DNA from: a virus
Taxonomy: Duplodnaviria; Heunggongvirae; Uroviricota; Caudoviricetes
Length of the DNA stretch: 6,981 nt
Strand: one strand, 5' to 3'
IMG/VR virus record: IMGVR_UViG_2695420514_000012
Shown here: piece by piece, positions 1-5,600 of the stretch
How positions within the stretch are numbered: the first letter of the stretch is position 1
Layout: each line of letters starts with the position of its first letter
Made by a program: the position numbers and the translations under genes
Notes under the pieces: generated by a model
What the model was told of the DNA's origin: nothing
The model's database searches: none
Seen by the model: only the letters and a program-made list of their open reading frames with translations

Positions 1-1
1 A

Positions 2-133
2 GCTGTTTACGGTGCGCAGGGGGTCAAAGTGCCACTGAATGATGCGCTTCTTCAGTGGGAGAAGGAGCATACAGAAGGCACCTCAGATCCATTTGCTGAG
101 ATTGAGAAGGCATTATTTGTTGCTGCTCGGTGA
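2..133 (+). CDS. 3' end of an upstream gene (partial, start lies outside the window); probably the tail assembly chaperone (G-T type) by synteny
   Basis: Open frame from position 2 to TGA at 131-133, translating to AVYGAQGVKVPLNDALLQWEKEHTEGTSDPFAEIEKALFVAAR*. Same strand and similar GC to the tail genes downstream. The identity as the T/GT chaperone is inferred only from its position upstream of the tape measure gene; I do not recognise the sequence itself. Confidence 0.4.
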   Translation, partial: AVYGAQGVKVPLNDALLQWEKEHTEGTSDPFAEIEKALFVAAR

Positions 134-142
134 TCTTTTCAC

Positions 143-173
143 TTGACTGGATTATTATTCCCATTTTATTGAG
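143..173 (+). promoter_or_regulatory. Putative sigma70-type promoter for the moron ORF
   Basis: TTGACT at 143-148 is a near-consensus -35 hexamer. The -10 is ambiguous: TTTTAT at 164-169 or TATTGA at 167-172 in the AT-rich stretch about 15-18 bp downstream. The assignment is weak and an upstream promoter could drive this gene instead. Confidence 0.25.
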
Positions 174-190
174 AAAGTAAGGAAACATTG

Positions 191-532
191 ATGGAATTTT
201 TACTTATTTCAATAGTTTTGGGACTAATTCCAGCTATTATTGCGAAAAGCAAAGGTCGCTCATTTTTAGGATGGTGGGTATATGGTGCGATGATCTTTAT
301 TGTTGCTCTGGTTCATTCGCTGGTAATCCAAAGAGATGAGAAGGCACATGAACAACAAATGGTAAGCAATGGCATGAAGAAATGCCCTTACTGTGCGGAG
401 TTGATCAAAGAAGAGGCTATTAAATGTAAGCATTGCGGTAGTGATTTAATTTGCAATGCAGATAGTTCCGTTTCACAAAAAACGGATGATGAATATCTTC
501 AGGAAGCAAGGCGTAAGGCCGGACTTCTTTAA
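191..532 (+). CDS. Hypothetical small membrane protein with two predicted TM helices and a C-terminal CxxC-x10-CxxC zinc ribbon (moron gene)
   Basis: ATG at 191 is preceded by AAGGA (179-183) at 7 nt spacing; the ORF track start at 188 is a TTG one codon upstream. Stop TAA at 530-532. The protein [51 protein letters not shown]... has two hydrophobic segments (about aa 3-18 and 25-46) separated by the basic loop KSKGRS, then CPYC(aa 65-68)...CKHC(aa 79-82), then an acidic tail. The coding region is visibly more AT-rich than all flanking tail genes. Function is unknown. Confidence 0.7.
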
Positions 533-540
533 AGAATACA

Positions 541-564
541 AAAACCGCTTCGGCGGTTTTTTTT
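541..564 (+). terminator. Rho-independent (intrinsic) terminator downstream of the moron ORF
   Basis: AAAACCGC-TTCG-GCGGTTTTTTTT: a 4-bp GC stem (545-548 with 553-556) extendable by A:U pairs (541-544 with 557-560), a UUCG tetraloop (549-552), and an uninterrupted T8 tract (557-564). It lies 9 nt after the moron stop and 10 nt before the tape measure start. Confidence 0.75.
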
Positions 565-574
565 CGTCCGGAGA

Positions 575-3500
575 ATGAGTGTGGCGACATTACGTGAACT
601 GATTATTAAAATCTCGGCAAACTCCCGGTCATTCCAGTCAGAGATCTCCCGGGCTTCGCGTATGGGGCAGGATTACTACCGCACCATGCAGAACGGAGGC
701 CGACAGTCTGCTGCTGCATCCCGTGAAATGCGGCGTGCACTGGCAGAAGTGACGGATCAGATAAATACAGCTAAATCTTCGGCACTGAATATGGCTGGGG
801 CATTTGCCGGGGCTTTTGCTACCGGTCATCTTATTTCTCTCGCCGATGAGTGGAATTCAGTAAATGCCCGTCTGAAGCAGGCCTCACAGTCCAGTGATGA
901 TTTTCAGGCATCACAGCGTGAATTAATGGCGATCAGCCAGAGAACGGGGACGGCGTTTTCTGATAACGCCAGCCTTTTTGCCCGTTCTGCAGCTTCCATG
1001 CGGGAGTATGGTTACAGTTCTGAGGAAGTACTGAAAGTCACCGAGGCGATCTCTACTGGCCTGAAATTATCCGGTGCCAGTACAGCAGAAGCCAGTTCGG
1101 TGATCACGCAGTTCAGTCAGGCTCTGGCGCAGGGGGTGCTGCGCGGTGAAGAGTTTAACTCGGTGAATGAGAACGGCGATCGTGTTATTCGTGCGCTGGC
1201 TGCGGGAATGGGAGTTGCCCGTAAGGATCTGAAGGCCATGGCGGATAACGGAAAGTTAACTGCCGATAAGGTTGTTCCTGCACTGATTAGTCAGCTTGGG
1301 GCATTACGTGATGAATATGCGGCAATGCCTGATACGGTTTCATCCTCTGCAACCAAAGTTGAAAACGCCTTTATGGCCTGGGTTGGTGGTGCGAACGAGG
1401 CAAGCGGAGTGACGAAGACGCTCTCCGGTGTGCTGAATGGTATTGCAGGCAATATTGACACCGTGGCAACCGCTGCCGGTGCTCTGGTTGCTGTCGGGGT
1501 AGCCCGATATTTTGGCAATATGGCGGCTTCTGCTGGATCTGCAACTGCCGGATTAATTACTGCAGCCAGAAACGAAGTAGCTCTTGCGGAAGCGCAACTC
1601 CGGGGGACACAGATAGCAACCGCCAGGGCGCGTGCGGCGGTTTATCGTGCGCAACAGGCGGTTGTTGCTGCTCGCGGTACCGAAAGGCAGGCAGCAGCAG
1701 AAGCGAAGCTGACAGTTGCCCAGGCGTCGCTTACCCGTAATATTGCGGCCAGAACAGCGGCACAGACAACGCTGAATAATGTTACGTCAGTGGGGAGCCG
1801 TCTGTTAAGTGGTGCGCTGGGGTTGGTTGGTGGTGTGCCGGGACTCGTCATGCTGGGGGCGACGGCTTGGTACACAATGTATCAGAATCAGGAGCAGGCC
1901 AGAGAATCTGCACGCCAGTATGCCGCAACAATCGACGAAATTCGCCAGAAAACGTCGGCAATGTCGCTTCCTGAAACGTCAGATAATGAAGAAAAGACGC
2001 GGCAGGCACTGAAGGAGCAGAACAGGTTAATTGACGAGCAGAAAAGTAAGATCAAATCCTTACAGGAAAAAATTGCCGGCTATCAGTATGTGCTGGCAAA
2101 CCCGGGCTGGACAACCGATAACGGTTTTATGATTAACCATATGACGTCGGTAAAAACTGTCACAGAAGGGCTTGCAGAAGCAACAAATCAACTGGCAGTT
2201 GAACAGTCTCGCCTAACTCAAATGCAGGGTAAAGCGCAATCCATTCAGGATGTGCTTGCCGGGCTGGAGGAGCGGCGGGTTGCGTTGATCCGTCAACAGG
2301 CAGCGGAACAAAACAAAGCGTATCAGTCCATGTTGATCATGAATGGGCAGCATACCGAGTTTAATCGCCTTCTCGGGCTTGGTAATGAATTACTTCAGCA
2401 GCGACAGGGGCTGGTGAATGTACCGTTACGGCTGCCACAGGCCACCCTGGATGATAAACAGCAGACCGCACTGAATAACAGCGAGCGCGAACTGGCTCTG
2501 TCCCGCCTGAAGGGGGAAGCCCGTGAGCGTGCCCGACTGGGTTATGCTGCGGATGATCTCGGCTTTGTGGGAGAGGCGTATCAGACAGCCAGACAGAATT
2601 ATATCAATAACTCACTGGATGCCTGGCGAAATAACCAGGCAAATAAACCCAAAGCGCATAAAAAGACCGAAGCGGAAAAAACAGAAGATATTTATAAACG
2701 GCTGATTAAACAGCAAAAAGAACAAATAGCACTGGCAGGTCAGAATACTGAACTGGCCAGGATGAAATATCAGGTCAGTCAGGGCGAATTATCAACCCTG
2801 TCAGAAGCGCAGAAAAAAACGCTTTTACAGAATGCGGCACTCATCGACCAGAAAAAGATTCGTGAGCAGCTTGCCGCGTATGAAAGCAGTCTGGCGGACA
2901 GTAATGCCAGCGCCCGGGCATCTGACGACGCGCAGTTGCTGGGATATGGTGAAGGCTCACGGATGCGTGAACGACTCCAGGAAATGTGGAGTATCCGGCA
3001 GGCGTTTGAGCAGAAAAATAACGAGCTGCTGAGACAGTATCAGGCCGGAGAAATTGAAGAAGCCCTGTGGAAACAGGAAAAATCGCTGAATGAAAAATAT
3101 CTGGAAGAGCGTCTCAGCGATCAGCAGGATTATTATGCAAAGGCTGATGCTTTACGCAGTGACTGGAATGCCGGACTCCAGGAGGGGCTGACGAACTGGG
3201 CAGACAGTGCCACCGATTATGCTTCGCAGGCGGCAGATGCTGTCGTTTCCACTATGGACGGGCTGGTATCAAATATTTCCGATGCACTGGCCGGAAATGT
3301 TGTGGACTGGCGAAACTGGGGGAGTTCAATCCTCCAGGAAGTTTCAAAAATTCTGATGAACGCTGCCATCGTTAACGGGCTGAAGTCACTTTCCAAAAGC
3401 ATGTCCGGTGCCGGAGGATGGCTTGGTACGGTCGGCGACTGGCTTTCCGGTGCAGTGGCAAACGCAAAAGGTGGTGTTTACACATCGGCAAATCTGAGTG

Positions 3501-3820
3501 CTTACAGTAACACTATTGTGGATACACCGACGTATTTTGCTTTTGCGAAAGGTGCCGGGCTGATGGGCGAGGCCGGGCCTGAAGCTATCATGCCACTGAC
3601 ACGGGCAGCGGACGGCTCTCTTGGGGTCAGAGCCATTGGCAATGTGAATGGTGGCGGGGGATTTGTTTATTCTCCCGTGTATCACATCAGTATTCAGAAT
3701 AAAGGGAGCAATGGCGAGATAGATACGCAGTCAGCTAGGGGGCTGGTGGATCTGATCGACAGCAGGGTTGTGTCAATTATGCAGTCATCACGTCGGGACG
3801 GAGGATTATGCAGTGCCTGA
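575..3820 (+). CDS. H: Tail length tape measure protein (lambda gpH-like C-terminus; 1081 aa)
   Basis: Single 3246-nt ORF ending TGA at 3818-3820. The C-terminal third (roughly from ...DWNAGLQEGLTNWADSATDY... through ...GAGGWLGTVGDWLSGAVANAKGG...) resembles the lambda H C-terminal region as I recall it. The N-terminal part is Ala/Gly/Ser-rich and helical like a tape-measure core; there is a hydrophobic Gly-rich segment (LLSGALGLVGGVPGLVMLGATAWYTMY) and a long Q/E/K/R-rich predicted coiled coil. It sits immediately upstream of M-L-K-I-J. Start is ambiguous: ATG 575 has GGAG only 1 nt upstream, whereas the in-frame GTG at 581 has canonical 7-nt spacing. Confidence 0.92.
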   Translation: MSVATLRELIIKISANSRSFQSEISRASRMGQDYYRTMQNGGRQSAAASREMRRALAEVTDQINTAKSSALNMAGAFAGAFATGHLISLADEWNSVNARLKQASQSSDDFQASQRELMAISQRTGTAFSDNASLFARSAASMREYGYSSEEVLKVTEAISTGLKLSGASTAEASSVITQFSQALAQGVLRGEEFNSVNENGDRVIRALAAGMGVARKDLKAMADNGKLTADKVVPALISQLGALRDEYAAMPDTVSSSATKVENAFMAWVGGANEASGVTKTLSGVLNGIAGNIDTVATAAGALVAVGVARYFGNMAASAGSATAGLITAARNEVALAEAQLRGTQIATARARAAVYRAQQAVVAARGTERQAAAEAKLTVAQASLTRNIAARTAAQTTLNNVTSVGSRLLSGALGLVGGVPGLVMLGATAWYTMYQNQEQARESARQYAATIDEIRQKTSAMSLPETSDNEEKTRQALKEQNRLIDEQKSKIKSLQEKIAGYQYVLANPGWTTDNGFMINHMTSVKTVTEGLAEATNQLAVEQSRLTQMQGKAQSIQDVLAGLEERRVALIRQQAAEQNKAYQSMLIMNGQHTEFNRLLGLGNELLQQRQGLVNVPLRLPQATLDDKQQTALNNSERELALSRLKGEARERARLGYAADDLGFVGEAYQTARQNYINNSLDAWRNNQANKPKAHKKTEAEKTEDIYKRLIKQQKEQIALAGQNTELARMKYQVSQGELSTLSEAQKKTLLQNAALIDQKKIREQLAAYESSLADSNASARASDDAQLLGYGEGSRMRERLQEMWSIRQAFEQKNNELLRQYQAGEIEEALWKQEKSLNEKYLEERLSDQQDYYAKADALRSDWNAGLQEGLTNWADSATDYASQAADAVVSTMDGLVSNISDALAGNVVDWRNWGSSILQEVSKILMNAAIVNGLKSLSKSMSGAGGWLGTVGDWLSGAVANAKGGVYTSANLSAYSNTIVDTPTYFAFAKGAGLMGEAGPEAIMPLTRAADGSLGVRAIGNVNGGGGFVYSPVYHISIQNKGSNGEIDTQSARGLVDLIDSRVVSIMQSSRRDGGLCSA

Positions 3821-4856: not shown

Positions 4857-5600
4857 ATGACAGAGACAGAATCAGCGATTCTGGCGCACACCCGGCGATG
4901 TGCGCCAGCGGAGTCGTGCGGCTTCGTGGTGAGAACGCCGGAGGGGGACAGATATTTTCCCTGCGTGAATATCTCCGGTGAGCCGGAGGATTATTTCAGG
5001 CTGTCGCCGGAGGACTGGCTGCGGGCAGAGCTGCAGGGTGAGATTGTGGCGCTGGTCCACAGCCACCCCGGTGGTCTGCCCTGGCTGAGTGAGGCTGACC
5101 GGCGGTTGCAGGTGCAGAGTGATTTGCCATGGTGGCTGGTCTGCCGGGGGGCGATTCACAAGTTCCGCTGTGTGCCACATCTTACCGGGCGGCGCTTTGA
5201 GCACGGGGTGACGGACTGTTACACGCTGTTCCGGGATGCTTATCATCTGGCGGGGATTGAGATGCCGGATTTTCATCGTGAGGATGACTGGTGGCGTCAC
5301 GGTCAGAATCTCTATCTGGATAATCTGGAGGCCACAGGGCTGTATCAGGTGCCGTTGTCATCAGCACAACCGGGCGATGTGCTGCTGTGCTGCTTTGGTT
5401 CATCGGTGCCGAATCATGCCGCCATTTACTGTGGTGACGGCGAGCTGCTGCACCATATTCCTGAACAACTGAGCAAACGAGAGAGGTATACCGACAAATG
5501 GCAGCGACGCACACACTCCCTCTGGCGTCACCGGGCATGGCACGCATCTGCCTTTACGGGGATTTACAACGATTTGGCCGCCGCATCGACCTTCGTGTGA
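4857..5600 (+). CDS. K: Tail tip assembly protein K (MPN/JAMM-like plus NlpC/P60-like domains)
   Basis: ATG at 4857 lies 4 nt after the L stop; stop TGA at 5598-5600. The product MTETESAILAHTRRCAPAESCGFVV... contains an HSHPGG...SEAD JAMM-type motif and, downstream, a Cys (GVTDCYTLF) and His (PNHAAIY) consistent with an NlpC/P60 fold, as described for lambda gpK. The ORF-track start at 4815 is an upstream in-frame extension inside L. Confidence 0.9.
   Translation: MTETESAILAHTRRCAPAESCGFVVRTPEGDRYFPCVNISGEPEDYFRLSPEDWLRAELQGEIVALVHSHPGGLPWLSEADRRLQVQSDLPWWLVCRGAIHKFRCVPHLTGRRFEHGVTDCYTLFRDAYHLAGIEMPDFHREDDWWRHGQNLYLDNLEATGLYQVPLSSAQPGDVLLCCFGSSVPNHAAIYCGDGELLHHIPEQLSKRERYTDKWQRRTHSLWRHRAWHASAFTGIYNDLAAASTFV

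Follow-up and report, generated by a model that had tools for sequence, protein, structure and literature searches.

A membrane zinc-ribbon moron beside the tape-measure gene of a lambdoid prophage, a possible superinfection-exclusion factor

The window analyzed here is a 6,981-nucleotide stretch of tailed-phage DNA (Caudoviricetes; IMG/VR record IMGVR_UViG_2695420514_000012), and our subject is a small open reading frame (ORF) that lies in it between the genes for tail assembly protein T and tail tape-measure protein H. The ORF is a moron that the tail operon of a lambdoid prophage acquired independently. Its product combines two hydrophobic helices with a zinc ribbon, and relatives of the protein are encoded just upstream of the tape-measure gene in several unrelated siphophages. 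We put forward, as a tentative reading, that the protein is an inner-membrane superinfection-exclusion factor directed against tape-measure-mediated DNA entry.

In Escherichia coli SC516 the same frame is WP_000394908.1, annotated in RefSeq as a “zinc ribbon domain-containing protein.” An earlier note, made from the letters of the window, had described two hydrophobic helices separated by a basic KSKGRS loop and followed by two CxxC knuckles and an acidic C-terminal tail, and most of this description holds. Both helices are seen in the hydropathy profile, with the loop between them, and again as helices 2-21 and 25-45 in an AlphaFold2 model calculated from an alignment of 56 sequences (mean pLDDT, 79). 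The model adds helices at residues 50-59 and 99-109, places short ribbon strands within residues 62-86, and leaves residues 91-96 disordered. The knuckles, CPYC at nucleotides (nt) 383-394 and CKHC at nt 425-436, are exactly 10 residues apart, and the search of Pfam profiles that the note had suggested returns Zn_ribbon_3 (PF13248) on residues 62-86 at 34.7 bits (E = 1.1e-8), above the gathering cut-off of 27 bits. Membrane insertion and zinc binding are what these features would predict. The tail was misjudged: residues 87-113 are mixed in charge, with five acidic and four basic residues. The best family match is phrog_8436 (E = 2e-50; residues 1-111 on profile positions 1-108 of 110), annotated in PHROG as of unknown function. 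A scan of the protein against NCBIfam gave ribbon-level noise alone, a BFVD fold search returned solely entries called “zinc-ribbon containing domain protein,” and the C-terminal tail peptide, used as a tblastn query against phages, found family members and nothing else.

The alignment of 56 homologs has 20 invariant columns. Eight of them fall in the ribbon, namely the four cysteines (C65, C68, C79, and C82), whose conservation the earlier note had proposed to check, together with K64, A69, E70, and A76; the other 12 are in the hairpin (G11, P14, A18, K21, G22, F25, W28, W29, Y31, G32, A39, and H42), which is unusually invariant for a membrane anchor. A further cysteine of the window protein, C88, is not conserved. 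Comparison with a second E. coli allele (pS = 0.51, pN = 0.067, dN/dS = 0.08) indicates purifying selection, so the ORF is a real coding gene. The helices, the cysteines, and the coding status were the points in the earlier note that could be examined by computation, and none came out against the ORF. The family is large: a first homolog search gave 1,623 clusters, and in a profile search of 1.84 billion representatives (50% clustering), 203 proteins reached E ≤ 1e-30 and 3,496 reached E ≤ 1e-10.

In SC516 the head module of the prophage is of the HK97 type and its tail of the lambda type, and a separate holin-lysozyme-Rz cassette lies about 10 kb upstream. Downstream of H in the window come M, L, K, I, and J. 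The GC content is 0.35 to 0.40 across the ORF, compared to 0.52 to 0.58 in the flanks. The five best phage matches, including PhiR49_2, are 94 to 95% identical to the window in the flanks and cover it in two or three aligned pieces from which the ORF is absent; the 46 nt that separate T from H in PhiR49_2 contain no ORF. The description of the ORF as a prophage moron is thus borne out, since collinear phages lack it and its composition differs from that of its neighbors. Homology with PhiR49_2 is gone from about nt 99 to about nt 541, and the last ~35 nt of T, from about nt 99 (…AEIEKALFVAAR in the window), are unlike those of the moron-less phages, which places a mosaic boundary inside T and indicates that the moron came along with a different T C terminus. 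Among 5,426 complete E. coli genomes, this tape-measure type occurs at ≥95% identity in about 870; the ORF region is found in 45 and an empty T/H junction in 843. The gene is therefore dispensable for tail function and a minority accessory.

The tape-measure gene is a recurrent neighbor. A scan of IMG/VR gave at least 566 viral contigs with a relative, and we located neighbors by tblastn at the 80 best of these loci (61 to 100% identity). T lies 56 to 138 nt upstream at all 80, and a tape-measure homolog lies 44 to 65 nt downstream at 79; the tape-measure proteins beside these loci diverge down to 39% identity. Across Enterobacterales lineages the moron family is conserved at 62 to 65% identity, compared to 39 to 42% for the adjoining tape-measure protein. 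Cronobacter prophages and Salmonella phage FSL SP-016 have the same T/tape-measure arrangement. More distant relatives (32 to 37% identity) sit just upstream of the tape-measure gene in Pseudomonas phages vB_PaeS-D14C and YMC11/02/R656 and in Klebsiella phages ST846-OXA48phi9.2, where the downstream protein was confirmed as TMP_2 plus TMP_4, and ST11-VIM1phi8.2. In Microcystis phage Mae-JY04 a relative lies between chaperone genes and the tape-measure gene on the opposite strand, an orientation that implies transcription of its own. Among species-level genomes, six loci (L191-L196) encode a C-terminal tail of the form K(T/S)D(E/D)EYLxEARxK..., and all six have an ORF of ≥728 residues ≤55 nt downstream; the forms of 86 to 92 residues have neither the tail nor such a neighbor.

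Some of these loci showed further variation. ST11-VIM1phi8.2 has two tandem genes annotated as zinc-ribbon proteins before the tape-measure gene (L110, 2983-3539), where its sister phage ST846-OXA48phi9.2 has a single 143-residue gene (phrog_8032). The members in vB_PaeS-D14C (L023, 3465-3776, + strand) and Marinomonas phage P12026 (L026, 3501-3746, + strand) are unannotated; both records instead annotate a small ORF on the opposite strand, probably a mis-call.

The Pseudomonas relative in YMC11/02/R656 connects the family to known immunity proteins. This protein, gp065, has 195 residues, made up of an Imm_superinfect hairpin (E = 1.6e-18), a ribbon, CPYCAEMIKCAAIKCRYCG, and a ferredoxin-like C-terminal domain. 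It is 33% identical to the window protein over residues 3-86 (E = 5e-15) and matches phrog_8436 with the hairpin included (E = 1.7e-18). The two proteins share a homologous ribbon (CPYCAEMIKxAAIKCRYCG), and gp065, too, is encoded between chaperone genes and the tape-measure gene; they differ in that gp065 has the canonical Imm_superinfect hairpin and the extra C-terminal domain, and in that its close relatives are found upstream of gpJ instead. The RefSeq names of gp065, “immunity to superinfection” and “superinfection immunity protein,” are transferred from the Pfam family. The combination of Imm_superinfect with Zn_ribbon_3 occurs in 663 clusters, and a third type of hairpin is joined to the same ribbon in other Pseudomonas phages.

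The Pfam family Imm_superinfect (PF14373) includes T4 Imm (E = 7e-16), which blocks DNA injection at the inner membrane (PMC11436027). When the hairpins were compared as profiles by hhalign, with the ribbon removed, the score was 22.8 (probability, 45%) over 40 columns with one 10-residue gap; the controls, one reversed and 30 column-shuffled profiles, reached at most 19.3 and were typically near 10. The two-helix hairpins of T4 Imm and the window protein appear to correspond in an (I/L)P-x-x-IA motif, in a basic loop, and in aromatic G-W residues of helix 2 (pattern sought: LPxxIA, basic loop, GW..GW..AL.WA), although the 10-residue gap needed to align them shifts the G-W motif to the start of that helix. 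T4 Imm differs further in having no zinc ribbon and in coming from a lytic myovirus. To judge from these profiles, the window hairpin and the Imm_superinfect hairpins are probably distant relatives; at the least, the two sets are interchangeable membrane anchors for the same ribbon. The coordinates of the ORF and of the elements around it are collected in Table 1.

Table 1. Features of the window at and around the moron ORF
Feature	Position (nt)	Strand	Details
Tail assembly protein T gene, 3' end	1-133	+	Stop TGA 131-133; T is WP_000978929.1, directly upstream in SC516
Promoter-like element	130-158	+	-35-like GTGATC 130-135 (overlaps T stop), 17-nt spacer, -10-like TATTAT 153-158
Shine-Dalgarno-like AAGGAA	179-184	+	6 nt before ATG; GG invariant or nearly so in alignment A5
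Moron ORF, predicted membrane zinc-ribbon protein (phrog_8436), 113 aa	191-532	+	ATG 191, TAA 530-532
Hydrophobic helix 1, aa 3-18	197-244	+	Hydropathy; AlphaFold2 helix 2-21; IPAxIA motif with invariant G11, P14, A18
Basic loop KSKGRS, aa 19-24	245-262	+	K21, G22 invariant; R23, S24 kept in ≥90% of sequences
Hydrophobic helix 2, aa 25-46	263-328	+	Hydropathy, AlphaFold2; invariant F25, W28, W29, Y31, G32, A39, H42
Zinc ribbon, aa 62-86	374-448	+	PF13248 match; signature KCPxCAExIKxEAxKCxxCG
Ribbon Cys codons	383-385, 392-394, 425-427, 434-436	+	C65, C68, C79, C82
Predicted C-terminal helix, aa 97-113, particular to the tape-measure-adjacent subfamily	482-529	+	AlphaFold2 helix 99-109
Terminator-like hairpin, AAAACCGC-TTCG-GCGGTTTT plus T run	541-564		Scan flagged the - strand
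Tail tape-measure protein H, 1081 aa, proposed target or partner	575-3820	+	Annotation/homology

The earlier note had proposed a role in exclusion or defense, and what speaks for it is genuine, though circumstantial: the slot shared with the exclusion protein gp15 of phage HK97, the adjacency to tape-measure genes in unrelated siphophages, the relative with a T4-Imm-type hairpin on the same ribbon, the above-control score of the hairpin profiles, and the promoter-like motif that lineages keep in register. In the mechanism that we envisage, the two-helix hairpin would insert the product into the inner membrane and keep the ribbon, with the short C-terminal helix, at the surface of the membrane, the cytoplasmic face being the likelier. 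The product would be made in the lysogen from a weak promoter of its own, and also late from the tail operon. It would leave the outer-membrane receptor alone and block the step at which an incoming tape-measure protein opens a conduit for DNA through the inner membrane, such that phages with the same or related tape-measure types would adsorb and fail to deliver their DNA, and the cell would survive. With its gene beside the tape-measure gene, the factor would not be parted from its target type by recombination among tail modules. A broader version, which we consider doubtful, makes the ribbon on its interchangeable hairpins the working part of a large, cross-phylum class of exclusion factors, recognizing the tape-measure protein or the emerging DNA end at the inner membrane; gene and target would then form a “lock next to its key” cassette that moves along with siphophage tail modules, with the subfamily's C-terminal helix setting specificity or recruiting a host factor.

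A number of observations weigh against the exclusion reading. A scan of the window protein against PADLOC-DB 2.0 gave two spurious ribbon-level matches (E = 1e-3 and 7e-3), and thus no defense model for the role that the earlier note had suggested. The 42-position PF14373 hairpin model does not match the protein at E ≤ 10, BLASTP finds no similarity between it and T4 Imm, and against HK97 gp15 BLASTP gives E = 0.3 over 11 residues, with no YebO match in Pfam. The ORF is frameshifted in one E. coli genome, 2014C-3075; this copy (L019, 1501-1933), unannotated and 88% identical, has 1-nt and 6-nt deletions around the first CxxC knuckle and is a decaying allele. The adjacency also has exceptions, among them forms of 173 residues at the prophage end, after the tail spike (Enterobacter-type, L007-L009), Klebsiella KP12-type phages, a Marinomonas phage homolog in an early region, and the Pseudomonas relatives upstream of gpJ. 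Furthermore, the T/H junction could merely tolerate insertions, and co-inheritance with the tail module would equally yield adjacency.

The neighboring cargo at the Enterobacter-type loci includes a gene for an O-antigen acyltransferase or for a YafO toxin; 10 nt upstream lies the end of a small lipoprotein gene. The gpJ-linked group in IMG/VR Pseudomonas-type phages (L112-L120 and L128-L141) consists of proteins 79% identical to the YMC11 protein, 0.9 to 1.7 kb upstream of gpJ (FNIII-A_GpJ); proteins with the third hairpin type and the same ribbon and C-terminal domain are likewise found upstream of gpJ in such phages. The HK97 morons gp22 and gp23 are at the I/J junction.

The elements that flank the ORF belong in this balance as well. 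The upstream regions of relatives (44 distinct sequences) show GTGACA or GTGACT, 17 nt, and TAGGAT, ending 27 to 32 nt before the ATG, and when 15 divergent lineages are aligned, the block ATTAGGATT hardly varies, unlike the spacer. The TGA in the -35-like hexamer is the T stop codon, which accounts for part of the conservation of that hexamer; the stop codon offers no such account for the -10-like block, which could be a -10 element or a regulator-binding site. A generic promoter scan of the window did not flag the upstream element. We take the conserved motif for a probable weak promoter and count it in favor of exclusion; that this reading goes no further than consensus belongs with the reservations just listed. 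At positions 149-159 the window carries ATTATTATT where other lineages (L037-L088) have ATTAGGATT, and the surrounding intergenic sequence differs.

The hairpin downstream of the ORF (about 1655-1678 in L001) has, read on the + strand, a CCGC/GCGG core with T8 after it. The moron-less junctions of PhiR49_2 and of the 843 E. coli genomes have it as well, so that it is a feature of the junction and not specific to the moron; this, too, tells against our reading. In the Cronobacter version the pairing of the stem is kept through compensatory changes. In moron-less phages the hairpin might have been left behind when a moron was lost, might serve mRNA stability, or might be a terminator that Q overrides; at the empty junction it falls inside what is expected to be a continuous late tail operon. 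A search of Rfam with nt 1-700 gave only sub-threshold matches, driven by the hairpin.

Transcription bears on a different role for the gene, as an accessory of the lytic cycle and not a defense made by the lysogen; produced late with the tail genes and acting at the membrane, it might, for example, guard the infected cell from secondary adsorption or injection or else tune the timing of lysis. Most lineages have the gene within the late tail operon and in the same orientation, the one characterized relative by architecture, T4 Imm, is expressed in lytic infection, and the higher identity within the family than among the adjoining tape-measure proteins suggests long residence in the module. 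We nonetheless regard this role as very unlikely, given that E. coli junctions are far more often empty than occupied and the gene is dispensable, that the promoter-like motif is conserved, and that the reversed gene in the Microcystis phage implies independent transcription.

The distribution of the family beyond phages raises another alternative. The core, residues 1-86, is present at 50 to 60% identity in 176 of about 185,000 species genomes, in Gamma-, Alpha-, and Betaproteobacteria, Desulfobacterota, Acidobacteria, Nitrospirae, Firmicutes, Bacteroidota, and other phyla. The proteins that bear it are mostly 86 to 92 residues long and have no tape-measure gene nearby, and such minimal chromosomal forms mean that the ancestral function need not concern phages; we count this, with the points above, against exclusion. 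The contexts vary. In Pantoea the relative sits in a degraded island and in an uncultured gammaproteobacterium among unannotated neighbors, in both cases without phage genes, and in a Desulfobaccales genome an integrase adjoins it. The 86-residue form of Paraburkholderia (L017/L018, around 5001-5261) has on one side a cluster encoding VWA, PP2C, and Ser/Thr kinase proteins and on the other a pair of Metallophos and AAA_27 (SbcCD-like) genes, in what resembles a variable conflict island; a variant of the locus has a transposase and an SNF2/DUF3670 helicase. No conserved operon partner was found, the upstream neighbors in four contexts being unrelated small secreted proteins or lipoproteins.

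These short forms are what would be expected if the moron were a lysogenic-conversion or host-physiology factor, acting at the host membrane on, for example, a stress response, a transporter, a protease, or the divisome, that phages took over from a bacterial family of wide occurrence. The origin of HK97 gp15 in a host family, YebO (PMC3594210), is comparable and parallels the bacterial spread of the short forms. We think this unlikely. Such a factor would leave unexplained the strict adjacency to the tape-measure gene in several unrelated tail modules and the C-terminal helix specific to the subfamily, and a spread that is rare, broad, and of high similarity fits mobile cargo, with the Paraburkholderia copies standing among conflict-type genes.

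Charges were counted with regard to the topology of the protein. In the family as a whole the loop carries on average 2.4 K/R and about 0 D/E, the 15 residues after helix 2 average 2.7 K/R and 3.3 D/E, and the N terminus has a single Met followed by a near-invariant Glu. Taken alone, the basic loop and the terminal charges predict that the loop is inside and the ribbon outside the cytoplasm. Nine variants with a third, C-terminal helix mostly have 2 to 3 K/R before it (one has none) and 0 to 1 after it, like tail anchors; these variants, together with the four invariant cysteines (a standard ribbon suits the reducing cytoplasm), suggest that the ribbon is inside. For the extra domain of the Pseudomonas relative, the nearest folds are cytoplasmic ones, without significance: UreE-C, ACT, and Lrp-type domains head its PDB matches, at E > 4e-3. 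A periplasmic SPOR domain, which would have settled the orientation, was considered for this C terminus and dropped, AlphaFold2 giving a generic beta-alpha-beta-beta-alpha-beta fold and SPOR not being among the matches listed. Counting by the positive-inside rule gave no settled topology, and we lean toward a cytoplasmic ribbon over an external one.

A hairpin with conserved polar and aromatic residues within the membrane could also act as a pore. An abortive-infection or holin-like effector of this kind would oligomerize through its hairpin, depolarize the membrane upon infection, and kill the cell before phage release. Its two predicted transmembrane (TM) helices and charged C-terminal domain resemble a class II holin, T4 Imm is reportedly holin-like at the molecular level, according to a review (PMC6832632), and the conserved H42, W28, W29, and Y31 suggest a helix-helix or pore interface. 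In the Marinomonas phage an amidase/endolysin gene starts 5 nt past the end of the homolog, but that neighbor is a T7-lysozyme-type amidase in the early/replication region and not part of a lysis cassette. With a separate holin, endolysin, and Rz cassette in the prophage and the ORF outside it, no conserved sensor partner among upstream neighbors that vary between loci, and no PADLOC match, we find such an effector quite improbable.

That small phage and prophage membrane proteins block DNA entry, including a moron at this slot, is already known, and the Imm-hairpin-plus-ribbon architecture already bears its transferred database name. What is new here is that the large family of “zinc ribbon domain-containing proteins” appears to be a divergent form of that architecture, that its position is bound up with the tape-measure gene in siphophages unrelated to one another, among them phages of Enterobacterales, Pseudomonas, Klebsiella, and a cyanobacterium, and that the tape-measure-adjacent subfamily has, in the predicted structure, a C-terminal helix of its own. 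Within the library searched, no paper on a zinc-ribbon moron beside the tape-measure gene turned up. The passage of siphophage DNA across the inner membrane, and the role of the tape-measure protein in it, is poorly understood, and the main genetic handles on this step are a few exclusion proteins, HK97 gp15, Ltp, and SieA, compared to which the moron family is much larger. If the protein does exclude phages in a tape-measure-specific way, it would provide a one-gene system for mapping the interaction between tape-measure protein and membrane, would explain some puzzling patterns of phage resistance in lysogens, with a bearing on host-range prediction for phage therapy, and could lead to the re-annotation of many “zinc ribbon domain-containing protein” entries. 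Tail-assembly interference of the Tai type was considered and set aside as unrelated.

HK97 gene 15 is the element for which the word “moron” was coined. It occupies the same slot as the window ORF, between T and the tape-measure gene, with an annotated terminator or hairpin directly after it, and both products are small, predicted to lie in the inner membrane, and dispensable for the phage. The gp15 protein is made from the prophage and, as an inner-membrane protein, keeps HK97 and HK75 from injecting their genomes while leaving the receptor unmasked; the block is relieved when the tail region of HK022, including its tape-measure gene, is swapped in (PMC3594210, PMC10883804). Other prophage envelope proteins that block injection after adsorption are P22 SieA, TP-J34 Ltp, and Tuc2009 Sie2009, with the tape-measure protein implicated as a target of Ltp and the ejection proteins as targets of SieA (PMC10883804). 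These three are unrelated to the window protein in sequence and architecture, being lipoproteins or larger membrane proteins, and none has a zinc ribbon. HK97 gp15, for its part, has one TM helix, no zinc ribbon, and a YebO-like sequence (PF13974), where the window protein has two helices and a ribbon, and exclusion is proven for gp15 and proposed for the window protein. The likeness between them is positional and architectural, and not one of descent.

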